A DNA stretch of 64,000 nt, taken from the NCBI GenBank assembly GCA_000004695.1, contig CM000154.2, forward strand, positions 1,824,001 through 1,888,000. Reading direction: 5' to 3'. The notes below the pieces were generated by a model. The model was not told the origin of the DNA. It made no database searches and saw nothing but the letters and a program-made list of their open reading frames with translations. This DNA is from Dictyostelium discoideum (taxonomy: Eukaryota). The position numbers and the translations under genes were made by a program. Positions 1 to 24,153 of this stretch are shown piece after piece. Positions within the stretch are counted from its first letter, which is position 1; each line of letters starts with the position of its first letter.

Positions 1-1749
1 GATAATAGTAAATCATTTGATAAAGATGGATCAATTTTATCACAATCACCAAGTCAAAGTAATAATAGTATTAGTAATAATAATAATAATAATAATATAG
101 ATAGTAGTAATATAAGTAAAAGTAATATTAGTAGTAATAATAATAATAATAATAGTAGTAATAATAATAAAGAAGAAATTTTAAATTTACAAAATGAAAT
201 TGAAAAATTAAAAAGAGAGAAACAAGAGATTCAAAACGATTTAGATGAATCAAATATACAATTATCAAATGTAACTATGGATCGTGATAGAATTACAATT
301 GATAAACAAAAGACAGAGGAAGTATGTTCAAGTTTACATGAATCAATCATTGGATTACAAAAACAATTGGATGAAACTATGGCACAAACCACAACAATGA
401 ATGCATTGAATGATGAAACCTATAAAACTGAAATCAATGATCTTCATATGCAAGTGGAATCAAAGGAGAAACAATTATCCGAATTGAAAAAGAAAGTCGA
501 TGAAGCCAATCGTTTAGCGAATGAAAATCGTTCATTACGTGATGAAATTGATATTTTAAGAGAGAAAGCTGCAAATGCTGAAGCAACTGAAGAGAAATTA
601 AAAAAACATCAAAAGAAAATCGAAGAAATTGGCGATCTAAAAAAGAAAATCAAGGAACTTGAAGATCAAAATGATAGTTACATTCAACAAACTTTGGATC
701 TTGAAGAACAACTCTCAAAGAATAACACCTATAGAACTCAAGCTGACTCTGGTAAACAACAAATCTCCTCACTAAAGATTGAATTGGCAAAATTGGAATT
801 ATCTTTGAAATCCATTAAAGAGGATCGTGATAAATTATCTGAATCTTTAAATACCGTAGAGTTGGAACGTGATAGTTTACAATCTCAAGTTACTAACCTC
901 AGAAATACAATCGATAATCAACAACAAGAATATGAAACCAAATTCGTTGATCTTCAATCTTCAATTAGTCTCAATAGTGGTGGTAGTGGTGGTTTAGGTG
1001 ATGAAGTCATTGATGGTTCAACCAAAGAAAGAATAGCTCGTTTAGAAAGAGATAACAAACGTTTAAAAGAAGTCGCTGAAAAAGCTTCTGAATTAGAAAA
1101 TCAATTAGAAGATGCCAATCAATCAAAAGAATTATTAACAATTCAAATTAAACAATTAGAAGAACAAAAACAACAATCAAATAATACTAATAATAATAAT
1201 AATAATAATAATATGGTCGATTCATCTGAAATTGAATCACTAAAACAACAATTAAAAGAAAAAGAAAAAGAAATTTCAACATTAAAGAGAAAACTCGAGG
1301 AATCTAATCTTAGTTTGGATGAAAATAGGAAACAATTGGTCGAATTATCACAAAGACCAACCACTCAATCACCAGGTGATATTGAAAAACTTGAAAATTA
1401 CGAAAATCTTCTCAAGGAAAATGATGGTTTAGAGGGTCGTTTAAGAGCTGCTCGTAACATCATTAAAGATCTTAGAGAAAAACATAAATCTTACTCAAAT
1501 CAAGAGACTCAATTGGCCACCAAAGATGAAGTCATCACCAAATTGGAAGGTTTGGTCAAAAAGAAGACTGATATCAACGAAGATTTAAGAAAACAACTCG
1601 AAGAAGGTAGAGAAGAATCTCAAAGAGAAATTAATTTAATGCTTTCAGCTTTCTTAAAGATTGGTTTAGAAATGGAACAAGTTAAAATTCAAAATATTTC
1701 AAGTTCAAAAGAACCAAGATCATTTTTAAATAAAAAAAGAGCTGATTAA
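1..1749 (+). CDS. Coiled-coil protein, 5'-truncated at the window edge (frame-1 coding runs from nt 1; stop TAA at 1747-1749)
   Basis: Frame 1 is open from base 1 through the listed ORF 277..1749, so the gene starts upstream of the window. Long heptad-like K/E/L/Q-rich sequence, an internal poly-N tract and a GGSGG linker. A/T-biased third codon positions. Confidence 0.55.
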   Translation, partial: DNSKSFDKDGSILSQSPSQSNNSISNNNNNNNIDSSNISKSNISSNNNNNNSSNNNKEEILNLQNEIEKLKREKQEIQNDLDESNIQLSNVTMDRDRITIDKQKTEEVCSSLHESIIGLQKQLDETMAQTTTMNALNDETYKTEINDLHMQVESKEKQLSELKKKVDEANRLANENRSLRDEIDILREKAANAEATEEKLKKHQKKIEEIGDLKKKIKELEDQNDSYIQQTLDLEEQLSKNNTYRTQADSGKQQISSLKIELAKLELSLKSIKEDRDKLSESLNTVELERDSLQSQVTNLRNTIDNQQQEYETKFVDLQSSISLNSGGSGGLGDEVIDGSTKERIARLERDNKRLKEVAEKASELENQLEDANQSKELLTIQIKQLEEQKQQSNNTNNNNNNNNMVDSSEIESLKQQLKEKEKEISTLKRKLEESNLSLDENRKQLVELSQRPTTQSPGDIEKLENYENLLKENDGLEGRLRAARNIIKDLREKHKSYSNQETQLATKDEVITKLEGLVKKKTDINEDLRKQLEEGREESQREINLMLSAFLKIGLEMEQVKIQNISSSKEPRSFLNKKRAD

Positions 1750-5071: not shown

Positions 5072-8587
<3,516 letters not shown>

Positions 8588-12784: not shown

Positions 12785-15502
12785 TTATTTTTGGTTATAT
12801 AAATAATTGAATTCATTGATTGTTAATGAATTTTTTAAATCTATAAAATAAGGATTATTAATTTTTTCAATATATTTTAAAAAAGAATAATTATGAGATT
12901 CTAAAAGATAATATAAAATTTTTATATTATATTGATCACCAATAAAATGTTTAACATAAAATAATAAATTTTGGTGATCACTAGTACTGTTATCATTATC
13001 ATTTCTATTGAAATAATTTAACATTATTAAATTTATAATATTAAAATCTTTATTATTAATTACCACTTCCATAAATTTTGATAACTCTAATGAATATCTA
13101 TGAGTGAATTTATCTAATGTTTCAAATGGTGAAAAGAATCTTTTTGTTAAAAGTTCATTATCATTTTTGAAAGATGCAACAATATATTTAAAAACATCTT
13201 CCATTTCAATTCTAGTTTGAATACCATTTTGTAGAATTTGATGTAATGTTAATTGTGGTGTATTAAATGATATCATTCCTTTAATATCAACCCATGTGAA
13301 AAATTCAAATAATTTAATTTGATTTGTACCATTGAATTTTTTAATATAATGAATCATAAAATATAAATTATAATTTATATTACAACTTTTACAATTATCA
13401 ACAATATATTTTAAATAATTAAAAAATTCATTAGGAATTTGTTTCATTGGTTTCTTAAATAAATAAATTTGATCACCATCTTTAATTGAACCAGTTTTGT
13501 TGAAATAATATTCAAGTAATGATATTGAATTCGTATTTGTAATTATTTCATTATTTAAAATATTTGGAATTGTTACTGATTTAAATGATTCTATAATCAT
13601 TTCTTTAACTGAAAACCAATCGTGTAAAAATGAAAAACCTTTAAAATTATTTAAAATGAATTCATAGATTTCAATTGATTTAACTCTTTTGAAAATATTA
13701 TTTATATTATAGAAATTATTTTCTCTATCCCAATTGCAACCATTTGCATTTTTTCTAAAACCATATAAAATATTTGCTGGCATTTTAAGAATTGTATCAT
13801 GTTTTAAAATACTTTCCAATTCTTTAAATGTAATTTTTACAAATTCAAAATCATTATATTGAATAATTAATTGAAGAAATATTATTGGATGAAGTTTAAA
13901 TTTATCAAAATTAAATTTAATTTCATTACAAACTTGATTTATAAATTGGATTTGATTTGATCTATTAAAACATTTATTAAATAATAAAGGAGTGGTTGTT
14001 TCAAATAATTCTAATAATCTGGTTGATGATCCAAAAAATCCATTTTTAATTACTTCATTTAAAATACTTGAATTTGTTGACTTTTTAATTAAATTACCAA
14101 ATGAATCTTCTTTTAAATTTATATTTTTATTATTACAATAAACTAGGTCCAACTTTGGTGAAATATATTGATTCATTACTTGGTACCATCTTGATAATAA
14201 ATCAAAATTTGCAAATCTTAAAGCACTAACTTCACATCCATTGAAACTATTAATATTTTTATCAATCTTTTCAATATGTTGGAAATTATCATAATCAGTT
14301 TGTTTATAATATTTGTAATAATATAAAGGTGATGAGATATTTAATGTAATTTCTCTAATAGTTAAAAACATTTTTAATAATAATTCAACATTTTTAATTG
14401 ATGATTCTACCATTGATATTTTTAATTTTAATAATTTTTTATCAAATTCCATAGAGTTTAATTTTTCAATTGTTAAAATAAAATCACTATTATTATTATT
14501 TTTATTCTCACAATTTTGATTGTTAGTTGATTTAATAATTATTGAAATTGATTTACAAATGTTTAAAAGAAATTCAACTTTAAAATCTGATGAAAGTGGA
14601 CAAAATTCATATATTATTTTAAATGATTTATAAAATGGATGATTTGAATTTGATGGAGGATTAATACCCTTTTTAATTAAAAAAAAGTTATAAAGTTTAA
14701 TATATGTACAAATACAATTAAAAAAATCATTTTCAATTAAACATTGAGATAATCCTTCTGAAAATGGTTTATGATGTTGATTTATATGAATATGTTTTGT
14801 TGAAAATGAATTTCTTGAAATTCCTAATAATTGTTTACCAACTTCTTTTAAAAAACAATTTGAAATTTCATCCCAAATTTTAATTTCATTATTTTTACAT
14901 ATAAAAAATTCATTAACACTACCACTACCACTACCACCACTAGAGTTACAATTTTTATATAATAATTTTCTAACTTTATTTAATGTTTTACAATGATGAA
15001 GTGAATTTGAATTTGAATTACTGTCTAAAATTAAATCAAATTTTAAAGGATTTAAATAATAATTATAACCATATTTTTCTTTACATAAAACTTTAAAAGC
15101 TGGTATATTATTTGAATTTACAGTTACAGAAATTAAATGATTTAATAAACTATCACCTCTATGACCTGGAATAATTGAATTATAAAATCTTTTAAAAAAA
15201 TTAAAAAATACTAATTCATCATAATCTTTTGTTTTTTGATTATTTTTAATTGGTGAAAGAAATGAAAAAATATTAAATTCATAAGTTTTACAATCCAATT
15301 CTAAATAATGATCATTTAATAATTTATATTTTAATGTATTCCTATAACCATTTTTAATTAACCATTTAATTGAATAAATTGGTCTTAATGAACTACCAAT
15401 TGTATCAATTTGATATCTACTAATATTAAATAAAATTATTTTAAATAAATAAATATTTCTAATAATTTTCCAAAATAAAATTTCATTATTATTAATATTC
15501 AT
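12785..15502 (-). CDS. Large N/I/K/F-rich protein (905 aa) with no recognisable domain (orphan)
   Basis: Single uninterrupted 2.7-kb ORF with ATG at 15502. Such a long stop-free frame in 78% AT DNA is strong evidence of coding. Only low complexity is a GGSGSGS tract. Confidence 0.6.
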   Translation of the reverse strand: MNINNNEILFWKIIRNIYLFKIILFNISRYQIDTIGSSLRPIYSIKWLIKNGYRNTLKYKLLNDHYLELDCKTYEFNIFSFLSPIKNNQKTKDYDELVFFNFFKRFYNSIIPGHRGDSLLNHLISVTVNSNNIPAFKVLCKEKYGYNYYLNPLKFDLILDSNSNSNSLHHCKTLNKVRKLLYKNCNSSGGSGSGSVNEFFICKNNEIKIWDEISNCFLKEVGKQLLGISRNSFSTKHIHINQHHKPFSEGLSQCLIENDFFNCICTYIKLYNFFLIKKGINPPSNSNHPFYKSFKIIYEFCPLSSDFKVEFLLNICKSISIIIKSTNNQNCENKNNNNSDFILTIEKLNSMEFDKKLLKLKISMVESSIKNVELLLKMFLTIREITLNISSPLYYYKYYKQTDYDNFQHIEKIDKNINSFNGCEVSALRFANFDLLSRWYQVMNQYISPKLDLVYCNNKNINLKEDSFGNLIKKSTNSSILNEVIKNGFFGSSTRLLELFETTTPLLFNKCFNRSNQIQFINQVCNEIKFNFDKFKLHPIIFLQLIIQYNDFEFVKITFKELESILKHDTILKMPANILYGFRKNANGCNWDRENNFYNINNIFKRVKSIEIYEFILNNFKGFSFLHDWFSVKEMIIESFKSVTIPNILNNEIITNTNSISLLEYYFNKTGSIKDGDQIYLFKKPMKQIPNEFFNYLKYIVDNCKSCNINYNLYFMIHYIKKFNGTNQIKLFEFFTWVDIKGMISFNTPQLTLHQILQNGIQTRIEMEDVFKYIVASFKNDNELLTKRFFSPFETLDKFTHRYSLELSKFMEVVINNKDFNIINLIMLNYFNRNDNDNSTSDHQNLLFYVKHFIGDQYNIKILYYLLESHNYSFLKYIEKINNPYFIDLKNSLTINEFNYLYNQK

Positions 15503-15546
15503 TTTTTATTATTTATTTATTATTAATAATTATTAATTATTTTTTT

Positions 15547-15581
<35 letters not shown>

Positions 15582-15698
15582 AAAAAAAAAACCAAAAAAA
15601 ATAAAAAAATAAAAAAATTAAAAAAACCATCACGATCTTTTTAAGATTTAAAAATAAAAATAAAAAATTAATTGGTAAACTACACTTTTACTTGCTCC

Positions 15699-15737
<39 letters not shown>

Positions 15738-15853
15738 TTGTAAATTACATTTCTATTTTATTCATTTATTAATTTCTTTAATTATTTTTTTTTATTATTT
15801 TTATTAATTAATTATATATTTAATTATTTATTTATTAAAATTTAAAAAGTTTA

Positions 15854-17692
15854 AATCAATGCATGAATTTTCTTAAGATCTTCAATTGAGAAAGCGGCAT
15901 ATCTTTCACACCACTCTTCACAATTCTTATTATAGTTGTTAACATCGTCACGATAGACACCAGCTTTAACAACATCAAGTGGATCATGTGGGTTTGGTGT
16001 GACAAGTAATTGGGATATACTTAACATAACTTTAGAAATTGTTAAAGCTGGACTCCAACTATCCTTTAAAATATCTAAACAAATATTACCATCATTATTA
16101 ATATTACAATGATAAATCTTTGTTAAAAATCTAATCTCTAAAATATGAAAAATTAAAAAATGAAGTTAGTATTTTTAAAATAATAATAATATTATAATAA
16201 ATTTTAAAAATATGAACATACTTGGAGCGGACATTGGATAATTATCTGGGAAATTTACAGATAATGCAAATAAACCTTTATGATATGGTGATTGTTGTGG
16301 GCCTTGCATAATAATTTTCCAAGCAACTATATTATTTTCATCCAAGAATAAAGTGAATTGTGAATAAGGACCATGGGATGAAATTTCTTCTTTAAAGTTT
16401 TTATATTCCTTGAAAACACGTCTACTTGCACCAGTAAACTTTGATTCTGCAGTTGAACTTGTATCAATTGTTTGTTTCAATTGAACATTTTGGAAAGCAG
16501 GTTCAACCTTACGTTCAATTGTTTTTTGATAAGTTCCACTGACTTTATTAAAATCAAGTTTTGTTTTAATATCCAATGAGAATGGTTTGAAATTATCACG
16601 AGCTGATAAAGATAACAAAGCTTCACGTTCAAATAATTCCACACCTTCTAATGACGAATCTGCAATGAAACAACTTCCACCTGTTGCCTGTGAAAATGAC
16701 GATAAACGCTCTCTACCATCTAAACCAATTGGAATTGAATCTAAAATGATATTATGTTTTTTCATGTATTGATAAACTGGATATGGGTCAAAGTTACTAT
16801 TATCTTCACCATCGGTTAAACAAAATACTCTAAGCATTGGATTAGACGATAATTTTAAACCACCAGTAGCAGCAGCATCGCAACTTTCTTTAAATTTAAC
16901 CAATGTTTCAGCAGCTAATTGAATTGCTTCAAATAATCTAGTTTTACATTGATTGGCAACAACTTCACCCAATTCAGTTGAGAAAGAATCGAAATTTCTT
17001 GTTAAATCAAATGTTAACTCTATTCTTTCACCAAATGTTACAAGTCCAACTGCAACTGGTACCTCTAATGATATTGCTTTATCAGTGAATGTTTGAAATA
17101 ATGTTTGTGCCAATTCAATTCTTGACATTTCAAGTTCACCTGGTACTCTACTACCTTTAAATGCTGCACTCTTCATTGATCCTGACAAATCCAATACAAT
17201 AACATCCAATTGTTTAATTTCTGATTCATATAATTCAACTTGTTTTTTAATTGGTTCTGTTGAGTTTAATGAATCTTTTTGTTGTTGTTGTTGTTGATTA
17301 TTATTATTATTGTTATTTAAATCAAGTTTATTTAATTGGGTGGAAATTAAATTTTCACCACTACTATTATCAGATGCTTGATTTGGTACAGATGTTGATG
17401 GTTCAATTGATGGTGGAGTTGTAGTTGATGTAGTTGTAGTTGTGGTTGTGGTTGTTGTATTGATATCAATTGAAGGATCAAATAATACTAGTTCTGAGGA
17501 ATCTAAAATATTCAACTCTTCTAAAGTATCCTCTTCAAATAATTCTGCATTTTGATATTCTAATTTATATTCTACATTTGTTGATAAATTTCCTCTTTTG
17601 ACAATTTCTTTAATAAATTCTTTAACGGTCAATGTTTTTTTAAATGGTACCCCAATCTTTTTATTTGGTGAAATTTGAATTGAAAGTGGCAT
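15854..17692 (-). CDS. Ubl-like / von Willebrand A / ubiquitin-conjugating (UBC E2) fusion protein. Exons 17692-16222 and 16137-15854 (about 584 aa).
   Basis: N-terminal 80 aa has beta-grasp-like features. vWA domain with a MIDAS motif ([10 protein letters not shown]...). The C-terminal UBC fold ([13 protein letters not shown]...[10 protein letters not shown]) is interrupted by a GTATGT intron and resumes [54 protein letters not shown], with the catalytic HCN-Cys intact. Stop TAA at 15851-15853. Confidence 0.75.
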
Positions 17693-18220
17693 TTATTTAT
17701 TTGTATATTTTTTAAAAAAAAAAAAATTATTTGTTTTTTATTTATTTGTTTTTTATTTATTTGTTTTTATTTATTTGAGAATATATTATATTAAATTTTG
17801 AAAGATGAAAAAAATAAAAAAAAAAAAAAATAATTTTATACTTTTTAATTTCAAGGAATAATAATTCTTTTTTTTTTCCTTTTTTTTTTTTTTCATTAAA
17901 AAAAAAACACTCACAATCCAGTCATCTAAAAAACAAACACAGTCACCCTTTTTTTTTTTTAAATTCTTATAAAATATCTTTTTTTTTTTTTTTTTTTTTT
18001 GAATAGGAGATGATATTTAATTTTTTAAATAAAATAAATGAAATAAATATCTTTTTTTTTTTTTTTTTTGGTGGAAATTTGTTAAAAAAAAGAAAAAAAA
18101 ATAAATTAGAAATTAATAAAAAAAAAAAAAAACCCAGAATGATATGAAAAATTTACATTTATATTTTTATTTATTTTTGATTGTTTTATTTTTATTGTTT
18201 AATTATAATTTCAAATTAAG

Positions 18221-18254
<34 letters not shown>

Positions 18255-18512: not shown

Positions 18513-19500
18513 GAGAATTAGTAAATAACTATTTTAAAAATTTAATAATTAAAAAAATAATAATTAATATATAACTTACTTGTACAAATAATAAAAATGG
18601 AAATAAGAATAAAGCTGATGGTGTCCAACCAGGGTCATTACCCCAACCTTCAGATTCACCAGTTACATCAATAATATTTGCTTTACCCATTGCAACCAAT
18701 TTATAGAGACGACCTTGTTGATAACGATTTGTCAATATTTGAACAAGACCTTGACAACCAGAGAAATAAGTTACTTGTGGGAGGAAATAAGAGAAAGATT
18801 CAGACAATGGGAAGAGTAAATTTGTTAATGAACCAGCAATCGAGAGATAATGATGCATAATCCACCACGGTTTAATTGAACTACCATTAACTAAAAGAAT
18901 ATTTTCACGTAATGCCAATGTGATGTAGTAGTAGAGTAACCAAATCTGCCAACTGGTGGTAACAAAACTACTTTGTGGATATAGTAATAACAATACAACG
19001 AATAAAATGAATTGTGGATTGGTTTTCTTTTTAAATTTCTCATATTCTTGCTTTAATCTAAACTTTTCATTCTCTCTCATATGTTTAACGTTTACTTGTC
19101 CCAAGAATAAACGAACGAAAATACTGCCAGTCTCGGGGGTGAATGATACCTTTGCACGTTTGACATTGACTTTGATTTGATCTAGATGAGCTGATAACTC
19201 TTTGGTGATATCTAATTGTTTCTCTTTTGCATTTAAATGTTTGATTCTACTAATGAGTTGTGATGATTCCTTTTCATGTTTTGCTAATGTATTGGTGATA
19301 TCATCGGCATGTTTAAAAACATCATTAATATCCTTCTTTACTTTAATACCTTTTTCTTTACATTGTTCATGACTTTTTTTTAATTCAAATACTTCATTCT
19401 TTATATCTTGTAATTCTTTTGATATTTGAACTTCATGGGTCGGTGTTGTTGATTTATTGGTAGCTATTGATGACTTTGTTTCAGAGAATGATTCCATCAT
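18292..19500 (-). CDS. TMEM120/TMPIT family membrane protein. Exons 19500-18580 and 18474-18292 (about 368 aa).
   Basis: N-terminal coiled coil, then multipass hydrophobic segments (WQIWLLYYYITLALRENILLVNGSSIKPWWIMHHYLS...). GTAAGT donor at 18579 and ctacag acceptor at 18475. C-terminal exon ...FAYQRSGYVEWQVFSCGFIFLCLGLGNLLTTLSVYYQKWKNF. Confidence 0.7.
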
Positions 19501-20808: not shown

Positions 20809-22008
<1,200 letters not shown>

Positions 22009-22725: not shown

Positions 22726-24153
22726 CTACATATCTTCAACACTCCAATAATAAGATTCTTCAGCTAAATTTTGATTTCTTGATTGTTTTGAGATGAATTC
22801 TTTTTCGAAACCATTACTACGATCAATACCATCCCATCTATAACCGGGTTTAATATTGAAACGATTTGAAGGATAAGGACCTTTGTATTCTGGTTTTTTG
22901 TCTATATCATTTTTATTTGATTTTTTTGATTTCTTTTTTCTACCACTACCACCACCTCCTCCTAGTAATGCCATTGGATCACCCCATCTATCTTTATCGA
23001 TTTGTTCACTATTTAAATCTTCATCATCGATGTATCTTGATAATGGTTTATTGATATCACGTTGAATACGTTCTCTTTCCTCTTCCTCTTTTTTCTTTTT
23101 AACTTTACCAATACCCCATTCCATATCTTTCTCTAATTCAATTTGTTCCTCTAATCTCTTTTTCTCGAGATCCATCTCTTTTTGTTTCTTTGGATCAACC
23201 TTTTTACCTGTAATTTTATCACGATATACTGTTTCTGCATTTCTACCCATCATTCTTTGTTGTTCTCTTAAAAATGTTTCCTTTTGTTCTTTATGTTTTT
23301 TATTCTCTTCTTCCTCTTCTTCTTCTTGTTCTTTTTTACTTTTAATTTCATCAAATGTTCTCTTTCTTGGTGGTGATAAATCTTCATTACTATTTCTATT
23401 TCTATTTCTTGGTGGTGATAAATCATTATTATTATTATTATTTCTATTTCTAGGTGGTGATAAATCTTTATTATTATTATTATTATTATTATTTCTATTT
23501 CTTGGTGGTGATAAATCATCATAATTATTGTTATTATTTCTATTTCTATTTCTTAGTGGAGATAGATCCTCATTGTTATTTCTATTTCTTGGTGGTGATA
23601 AATCTTCATTATTGCTACTACTATTCCTATTTCTTGGTGGTGATAAATCTTCATTATTATTATTATTATTATTATTATTGTTGTTGTTTCTATTTCCACT
23701 ATCACTTGAACTTTTATTTATACCAAATGAAATATTACTACTACCACCAATATTCTTTTTGGTAGTGGGAGGTTCAATCGTTATCCATTGTGATGTTGAT
23801 GATGTTGATGACGATGAAGAAGGAGGAGGTTTAAAATTGAATTGATCACTATTTACAATTAAAGGTTTATCATCTTCATCTTCTTCATTATCATTGTCAT
23901 CATCATAGTTATTGTTATTACTATTATTATTATTATTATTATTATTAAATTTATTTATTAAATTCTTTCTTTTATTTTCATTTGCATCTTTTGATATTAT
24001 TTCTTGTTGTTCATCTATGTCTACAATTTTATTACCTGTAGATACCAATACTTTCTTTTTCTTTTTTTTTTTTTCTTTATTACCGCCGCTTCTATTTGAT
24101 TCATCATTTGATTGTTCGTTTGGTGTTAAATATTTCTTTAAATATTCATTCAT
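22726..24153 (-). CDS. bud13: BUD13/CWC26 (RES complex) homologue, 475 aa
   Basis: N-terminal MNEYLKKYL matches BUD13 (..AEYLKRYL). Central tandem (E)DLSPPRNRN repeats, as in human BUD13. Conserved C-terminal block [32 protein letters not shown]. Confidence 0.85.

Follow-up and report, generated by a model that had tools for sequence, protein, structure and literature searches.

The DNA stretch analysed here is a 64,000-nt window of the Dictyostelium discoideum genome (contig CM000154.2, positions 1,824,001 to 1,888,000 of the forward strand; GC content 22.5% across the window), and the subject of this study is the gene DDB_G0288697 on its minus strand. The gene consists of two exons, 17692..16222 and 16137..15854, whose spliced product of 585 aa combines a ubiquitin-like (Ubl) N-terminus, a von Willebrand factor A (vWA) domain with an adhesion site that depends on metal ions (MIDAS) and the catalytic core (UBC) of a ubiquitin-conjugating enzyme (E2). 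By every sequence and fold criterion that we applied, this protein classifies as a member of both the UBC/E2 and the vWA superfamilies. The coding sequence (CDS) is organised as follows:

15851..17692, minus strand: DDB_G0288697 CDS in full, comprising two exons and the TAA stop codon (15853..15851); spliced translation identical to XP_636583.1/Q54IK3.
16222..17692, minus strand: exon 1, codons 1-490 and the first base of codon 491, encoding the Ubl, the spacer, the vWA domain, the linker and the N-terminal half of the UBC domain.
16138..16221, minus strand: intron, 84 nt, phase 1, GTATGT...TACTAAC...TAG, 9.5% GC.
15854..16137, minus strand: exon 2, remainder of codon 491 to codon 585, encoding the HCN motif, the catalytic Cys, the C-terminal half of the UBC domain and the tail.

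Every residue of the spliced translation is the same as in XP_636583.1 / Q54IK3 / DDB_G0288697 of D. discoideum AX4, an entry that carries only the database name 'hypothetical/uncharacterized protein'. The first-pass annotation of this DNA, which was made from the sequence alone, had placed a single gene with Ubl, vWA and UBC parts at 15854-17692. Span and strand proved exact, with the stop codon omitted, and the product is Q54IK3. An in-frame stop lies directly upstream of the ATG, and the gene span of 1842 bp corresponds to the published 'chromosome 5 position 1839851 to 1841692' (PMC6830349 supplement). The phase-1 GTATGT intron that had been read within the UBC domain was likewise recovered (16221..16138), and its position is conserved in two relatives, a second D. 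discoideum strain and D. citrinum, where the GT, TACTAAC and AG signals are kept and the lengths differ. Intron identity to these two is 76% and 60%, respectively, compared with 96% and 88-91% for the exons, and the alignment of DDB_G0288697 to UBE2D2 is gapless across the splice junction. Residues 1-490 are encoded by one uninterrupted open reading frame (ORF), which comprises the Ubl, the vWA domain and the first 69 UBC residues. Since this one exon covers the vWA domain as well as the first half of UBC, their fusion is independent of splicing. Retention of the intron would extend the exon-1 frame to a stop at 16175-16177 (minus strand), giving a predicted product of 505 aa in which the Ubl, the vWA domain and half a UBC domain are present and H-C-N and the catalytic Cys are missing. 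No second copy of the vWA-UBC gene was found in the 64,000-nt window. The protein has been quantified by mass spectrometry (MS) and is up in 5-h developed compared with vegetative cells, both in AX2 (p=0.001) and in glkA-null cells (p=0.013) (PMC6830349). DDB_G0288697 is a real, expressed gene.

Pfam profiles matched the spliced product above threshold for both the UBC domain (PF00179, UQ_con at residues 440-566, 148 bits, E=1.7e-43) and the vWA domain (PF00092/PF13519; VWA_2 at residues 164-295, 40.2 bits, cutoff 27; VWA at residues 164-348, 28.2 bits, cutoff 23.8), and by their scores these three matches are not due to chance. A full-length AlphaFold2 model, built from a 25-sequence alignment, reached a mean predicted local distance difference test score (pLDDT) of 78.9 and a predicted template modelling score (pTM) of 0.65. 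It shows the expected vWA and UBC folds (residues ~158-353 and 422-571) together with a beta-grasp N-terminus (1-72), an ordered segment at 354-421 and a short C-terminal helix; disorder is predicted only for residues 76-155. Conservation was read from four family alignments of 25 (A1), 16 (A2), 139 (A3) and 43 sequences (A4, distant long members), and selection from the ratio of nonsynonymous to synonymous substitution rates (dN/dS) by the method of Nei and Gojobori, in comparisons with D. citrinum and with a closer strain labelled D. discoideum. On this basis the following parts were delimited:

17477..17692, minus strand: N-terminal integral Ubl (beta-grasp) domain, residues 1-72, without a C-terminal Gly-Gly; from the family profile, the AlphaFold2 model and dN/dS.
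17222..17476, minus strand: Thr/Asn/Gln-rich low-complexity spacer, residues 73-157, predicted disordered (pLDDT <50 at 76-155; dN/dS 0.46-1.05).
16634..17221, minus strand: vWA domain, residues 158-353.
17177..17191, minus strand: MIDAS motif D168-L-S170-G-S172; D, S and S invariant in 16/16 (A2) and 43/43 (A4) sequences.
16940-16942, minus strand: MIDAS T251, invariant in A1.
16811-16813, minus strand: MIDAS D294, invariant in A1.
16430..16633, minus strand: ordered, conserved extension or linker between vWA and UBC, residues 354-421, starting F-E-R-E-A-L-L...R; from conservation, pLDDT and dN/dS.
15896..16429, minus strand: UBC (E2 catalytic core) domain, residues 422-571, split by the intron.
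16103..16111, minus strand: H500-C501-N502, family variant of the E2 HPN motif; H and N invariant in A1.
16079..16081, minus strand: codon encoding the active-site Cys510, which lies within C-L-D-I-L as it does in UBE2D; without variation in A1 and A4.
15854..15895, minus strand: C-terminal tail, residues 572-585, after the UBC core; modelled as a short helix at 575-581.

The UBC domain had been described as following directly on the vWA domain, and this point requires correction, as some 68 conserved and predicted-ordered residues (354-421) intervene. In the 25-sequence alignment this linker includes the invariant E357 and R365 and, with conservation of 90% or more, F354 and E355. Its pLDDT values of 79-95 in the full-length model drop to 53-59 for residues 395-420 when the protein is modelled without the UBC domain. 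At the other end of the UBC core, a tail ending in [HY]xL[EI] is common to most amoebozoan members.

The intact MIDAS claimed for the vWA domain was confirmed at the level of sequence. DLSGSM occupies residues 168-173, and T251 and D294 complete the D168-x-S170-x-S172 signature. D168, S170 and S172 reach 90% conservation or more in the 25-sequence alignment, in addition to their invariance in the 16- and 43-sequence alignments, and T251 and D294 remain about 90% conserved or more in the 139-sequence alignment. Among the 43 distant long members, D-x-S-x-S-M, the MIDAS Asp and the E2 residues H, N and C are all invariant. Given the invariance or near-invariance of DxSxS, T251 and D294, the MIDAS is as conserved as the active-site Cys, and from this complete set of residues we infer metal binding. 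When the vWA region was used as a single-sequence query against PDB sequences, nothing significant was retrieved, and the family profile of the domain matched only generic vWAs. The nearest structural likenesses include Rpn10, TFIIH p44/p34, INTS14 and Ku80, which are intracellular docking modules of the ubiquitin and transcription machinery.

The UBC domain is 44% identical to that of UBE2D2, with Cys510 aligning with Cys85 of UBE2D. The HCN triad and the active-site Cys of the first-pass annotation are in place (H500, C501, N502 and C510), and all motifs quoted there were recovered, including across the splice junction. In the canonical HPN motif the Asn is the catalytic residue, and His and Pro have structural roles. 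The S-P-A and N-P-x-D-P-L loops are also present, and the Asp equivalent to D117 of UBE2D is retained. The domain would thus be expected, from its catalytic residues, to form a thioester, and to form it with ubiquitin rather than another modifier. At the position of the contact residue F62 of UBE2D for ubiquitin ligases (E3s), the protein has M487 in the sequence Y-P-M-S-A-P-K-I-R-F, which corresponds to Y-P-M-A-A-P-K-V-R-F in UBE2N, and UBE2N is an E2 with RING and U-box E3s among its binding partners. This local match to UBE2N/Ubc13 around Met487 makes E3 binding plausible. Cys501 precedes the catalytic Cys510 by nine residues, and redox, disulfide or structural roles are candidates for this additional Cys; the Cys of H-C-N might add a layer of regulation, such as redox control.

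UBE2D/Ubc4-5 orthologues have about 147 aa, HPN, F62 and D116/D117, and share more than about 70% identity among themselves. Unlike these enzymes and UBE2N/Ubc13, which are single-domain proteins of about 150 aa, DDB_G0288697 has some 420 additional N-terminal residues and a 14-residue tail. It also differs from UBE2D in having H-C-N instead of H-P-N, M487 at F62 and His at the D116 position. Membership of the UBE2D subfamily was rejected on account of the multidomain build, the 44% identity to UBE2D2, HCN, M487 and the His at the D116 position, which leaves a relative; the protein is not a UBE2N orthologue either.

The ubiquitin-like character of the N-terminus, part of the first-pass annotation, is supported by the family profile and the predicted fold and falls short in Pfam. 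The Pfam ubiquitin profile scored 19.9 bits at residues 8-70, where 25.4 are required, and Rad60-SLD reached 17.8 of the 23.8 bits needed, so that the Ubl is not established by Pfam alone. A profile of the N-terminal 75 residues of 16 family members, searched against the PDB, retrieved ubiquitin folds (E=1e-4), ubiquilin-1 (0.003) and Dsk2 (0.036), and the AlphaFold model places these residues in a beta-beta-alpha-beta-beta-beta pattern with a pLDDT of 77-89. A C-terminal Gly-Gly is absent from the Ubl of DDB_G0288697, and no family member's Ubl has an RGG end, which indicates an integral domain and not a conjugatable modifier. Carried on a disordered tether, the Ubl is probably a regulatory or targeting handle.

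The dN/dS values obtained against D. citrinum are 0.05 (Ubl), 0.08 (vWA domain), 0.18 (linker and UBC domain each) and 0.46 (low-complexity spacer). Across comparisons the folded domains range from 0.05 to 0.18 (Ubl 0.05-0.14, linker 0.13-0.18), which shows that each folded part is kept by purifying selection. The spacer ranges from 0.46 to 1.05, the upper value being that against the closer strain; selection on the spacer is relaxed, and the tether is evolving neutrally. The orthologue P0001 (locus L001) in GCA_054859385.1, an assembly labelled Dictyostelium discoideum, shares 96% protein identity with the AX4 protein at a dS of about 0.12, which is rather high within one species.

A search with the full-length protein revealed that all dictyostelids sampled encode this architecture, in most cases in two paralogous copies, and that Stereomyxa and Pelomyxa have it as well. 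The same domain order recurs in further Amoebozoa, and the search additionally retrieved proteins with a C-terminal U-box from the teleosts Cyclopterus and Kryptolebias. When only the vWA domain and linker (residues 155-420) were used as a phmmer query against 1.84 billion representatives, 536 matches with E<=1e-3 were obtained, of which 203 reached E<=1e-10. Among the best 139 of these matches, 99 have a downstream E2 active site of the form H-x-N...G..C, with H-C-N in 70 of the 99 motif-bearing representatives and H-P-N in 7; UQ_con was still found in 13 of 21 re-checked sequences without the H-x-N...C motif, among them branches in which the Cys is lost or H-P-Q is read. The distance from MIDAS to Cys is mostly 316-380 residues. 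In the 43 long members, UQ_con was detected in all 43 and VWA_2 in 42, accompanied by a U-box in 18, a RING in 4 and ubiquitin-family domains in 17. The co-occurrence of U-box, RING and Ubl domains in the same chain places the module inside ubiquitin transfer. Judged from these searches, this type of vWA domain occurs almost only fused to UBC, and with conserved spacing. DDB_G0288697 fits the family definition in its vWA subtype, the F-E-x-E...R linker, a UBC domain about 320-380 residues from the MIDAS, and H-C-N.

The named sources within Amoebozoa are Dictyostelia, Mastigamoeba, Pelomyxa, Paramoeba, Pyxidicula and Stereomyxa. Beyond Amoebozoa they comprise Chromera and Amoebophrya (Alveolata), Entosiphon (Euglenozoa), Tritrichomonas (Parabasalia), Mycena (Fungi), bdelloid rotifers and teleosts. 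A word-indexed profile search based on the vWA alignment retrieved 8 proteins only, with rotifers as the main addition. Where a source gives a name, it is 'hypothetical', 'UBC core domain-containing' or a generic 'ubiquitin-conjugating enzyme'. The first-pass annotation had called the architecture unusual, which holds relative to standard model organisms and fails in view of a large family of more than 100 sequence clusters. The teleost module is present in Cyclopterus (P0028), Kryptolebias (P0029) and Coilia (proteins P0028/P0029/P0098), the Kryptolebias protein having an upstream Ubl as well, and in the family member P0031 the U-box stands at the N-terminus. Judging by their domain content, the U-box-bearing members look like single-chain E2-E3 proteins. 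Some branches (P0120, P0122 and P0141; P0083, P0091, P0105, P0158 and P0163) have either lost the catalytic Cys with HPN present or carry H-P-Q...C, and without exception their MIDAS motif is intact. The Cys-less branches are, from their sequences, probably pseudo-E2s.

Several characterised proteins share single aspects of this architecture. The vWA domains of Rpn10/S5a, TFIIH p44 (Ssl1), p34, INTS14 and Ku80 are 13-17% identical to that of DDB_G0288697 (14-17% for Rpn10), which differs from these proteins in having a complete, invariant MIDAS and neither zinc fingers nor a ubiquitin-interacting motif (UIM). No UIM was found in the Pfam scan of DDB_G0288697, so it is not an Rpn10-type receptor. 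UBE2O, BIRC6 and UBE2K are E2s with built-in targeting domains or E2/E3 hybrids. They resemble DDB_G0288697 in joining an E2 core and a substrate- or ubiquitin-binding domain in one chain, which makes a separate E3 less needed or dispensable. However, they have no vWA domain or MIDAS and no homology to DDB_G0288697 outside the UBC core, so that the likeness is conceptual. A likeness in concept also exists with the plant RGLG-type E3 ligases, which consist of vWA and RING: the vWA domain lies in cis with a ubiquitin-transfer domain, as here, but the partner is a RING E3 and not an E2. Complement factor B/C2 offers an analogy of mechanism only, in that a MIDAS vWA domain followed by a catalytic domain docks the enzyme on a platform via a metal ion. 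These proteins are extracellular, their catalytic domain is a serine protease, and their profile and structural matches to the DDB_G0288697 vWA domain are weak. The MIDAS of Mdn1/Rea1 binds the UBL of Rsa4/Ytm1 (PMC8837202), though in an AAA+ ribosome-assembly machine that contains no E2 and with the Ubl on a separate protein. Bacterial vWA-MoxR 'FtsH ternary' conflict systems (PMC7159879) bring together a vWA protein, a Ubl-E2 fusion, an E1 (ubiquitin-activating enzyme), RING and JAB in one system. In these, vWA and E2 are linked by operon and not by fusion, and the families are prokaryotic, which again limits the likeness to the concept.

Based on these features, we favour, with moderate confidence, the reading of DDB_G0288697 as a catalytically active E2 for ubiquitin, similar in type to Ubc4/5-Ubc13, permanently joined by a conserved, ordered linker to a MIDAS vWA docking domain and with the Ubl tethered N-terminally. 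We propose the following hypothetical mechanism, in which (i) an E1 would load ubiquitin onto Cys510; (ii) the divalent cation of the vWA MIDAS would grip a partner, either a substrate or a platform, by a carboxylate or an acidic side chain; (iii) the captured partner would be held beside the E2~ubiquitin thioester, so that target choice would be built into the E2; and (iv) the vWA-UBC pair would act as a substrate-recruiting E2, a module resembling an E2/E3 hybrid. In other lineages a U-box or RING would be provided in cis, and in Dictyostelium an E3, if needed, would act in trans. The Ubl would most likely serve as a regulatory or targeting handle, directed for instance at the proteasome, at a shuttle factor or at the backside of the E2. 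The first-pass annotation had offered either a substrate-recruiting E2 or an E2-like regulator; the former appears reasonable from the sequence, and the latter is less likely for DDB_G0288697, because every catalytic residue is retained. An active E2 with built-in docking is favoured by the conservation of the MIDAS, which equals that of the Cys, together with the fixed linker and spacing, by the repeated addition of U-box or RING to the same chain, and by the resemblance of the vWA domain to the intracellular docking modules Rpn10, p44/p34, INTS14 and Ku80.

Four observations weigh against this reading. The Pro of HPN is replaced by Cys501; the E3-contact residue equivalent to F62 varies across the family; and no ligand-specific vWA relative was found among the family-profile and structural matches, so that the best of them, being generic, give no pointer to a particular substrate. 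Finally, the loss of the Cys in some branches implies that the vWA-UBC module can work without catalysis. Recruitment of substrates is a putative role of the vWA domain.

Other readings of the same features were weighed. An alternative that we consider unlikely takes its model from the UEV (ubiquitin E2 variant) partner of Ubc13 and the ubiquitin-associated (UBA) domain of UBE2K, and treats the protein as a chain-building, linkage-specifying E2. Here the vWA domain or the Ubl would orient an acceptor ubiquitin or Ubl towards Cys510, and chains would be extended or edited. This would be consistent with the Ubc13-like loop in the UBC domain, and it has a precedent in the MIDAS-UBL interaction of Mdn1 (PMC8837202).

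The same type of contact could, by analogy, operate within the chain. In a cis-autoinhibited protein, an acidic residue of the Ubl would dock on the MIDAS and keep the molecule closed until a competing ligand or a signal arrives, as suggested by the binding of the Rsa4 UBL to Rea1 (PMC8837202), by the 85-residue disordered tether, which would permit binding of the Ubl in cis, and by two conserved acidic residues in the family Ubl, D55 (invariant) and D64 (at least 90% conserved). However, Asp64 occupies the Asp/Asn-Gly turn before the last strand (the position of K63 in ubiquitin), which is common in Ubls for structural reasons, so that its conservation is not diagnostic. Asp64 was therefore dropped as a candidate for a MIDAS-binding residue like the acidic residue of Rsa4. 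Moreover, the Pelomyxa protein and one other amoebozoan member have a different N-terminal region instead of the Ubl and yet an intact MIDAS. Overall, we regard autoinhibition in cis as rather improbable.

Less probable still is a non-catalytic scaffold or regulator, in which a UEV-like UBC domain would sequester ubiquitin, E1 or E3. The family branches without the catalytic Cys or with HPQ point in this direction, as does the replaced proline in DDB_G0288697 itself. Against this, Cys510, His500, Asn502, CLDIL and SPA are kept under purifying selection in DDB_G0288697 and all its amoebozoan orthologues, and H-C-N occurs together with the Cys in 70 representatives. An erroneous merger of an adjacent vWA gene and an E2 gene, for which the intron inside the UBC domain is the sole point in favour, is refuted by the single ORF that spans the vWA domain and the start of UBC (residues 1-490), and has next to no probability given the same fusion on single transcripts in independent transcriptome assemblies of other amoebae, the same architecture in more than 100 sequence clusters and the detection of the 585-aa protein entry by MS (PMC6830349).

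Returning to the active E2 with built-in docking, we tentatively suggest, as a possible though doubtful generalisation, that vWA-linker-UBC is an ancient pan-eukaryotic ubiquitylation module with a MIDAS receptor within the E2, which in many lineages would be completed by U-box or RING and Ubl in cis to a single-chain E2-E3 with a substrate receptor of its own. In such a module, the conserved C-terminal helix of the vWA domain and the linker might relay ligand binding from the MIDAS to the E2, as happens in integrin I-domains and factor B. E2s are usually viewed as generic carriers, with targets picked by E3s, and an E2 welded to a vWA domain would choose its targets differently. If true, this would represent a new mode of substrate selection in ubiquitylation and a use of metal-dependent adhesion-type domains for this purpose inside cells; if the protein is simply an E2 to which a binding domain has been added, it would be a moderate extension of E2 diversity. 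The family is missing from the yeast, plant and mammalian reference sets, which is probably why it is unstudied. It is present in teleosts and in a genetically tractable amoeba whose protein is developmentally induced; should the proposal be true, Dictyostelium would be the system in which to define the class. No description of a vWA-E2 fusion was found in the searchable literature, a scope that did not cover the E2-fold survey of Burroughs et al. 2008, which may mention the fusion. The only mention of Q54IK3 that was found is an unnamed entry in a proteomics table (PMC6830349). The architecture itself is not a discovery, because the gene and its Pfam matches are already in public databases; what appear to be new in the searchable literature are the breadth of the family, the H-C-N signature, the obligate coupling of vWA and UBC, and the frequent addition of U-box or RING.

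Directly downstream of DDB_G0288697 lies a 905-aa Asn-rich ORF (12785-15502, minus strand) without a Pfam match, with counterparts at the same position in two related genomes (909 and 927 aa). The upstream neighbour (18529-19500, minus strand) is a TMEM120A/B homologue (E=8e-93) whose ORF is apparently only one portion of a gene with several exons; relatives preserve the synteny of this neighbour with the E2 gene. Further genes of the window encode a HOOK-like coiled-coil protein (277-1749, plus strand), a class-I myosin with motor, IQ and TH1 regions (5072-7333, minus strand), the ORF of which starts within the motor domain, so that more exons are expected upstream, a RagA/Gtr1 GTPase (21145-22008, plus strand) and the splicing factor Bud13 (22726-24153, minus strand). 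A functional link of the E2 gene with its neighbours was rejected, as these are unrelated housekeeping genes. Long poly(A)/poly(T) tracts and simple AT repeats flank the gene at 15530-15600, 15700-15735 and 17700-18250 and are typical of Dictyostelium intergenic DNA.

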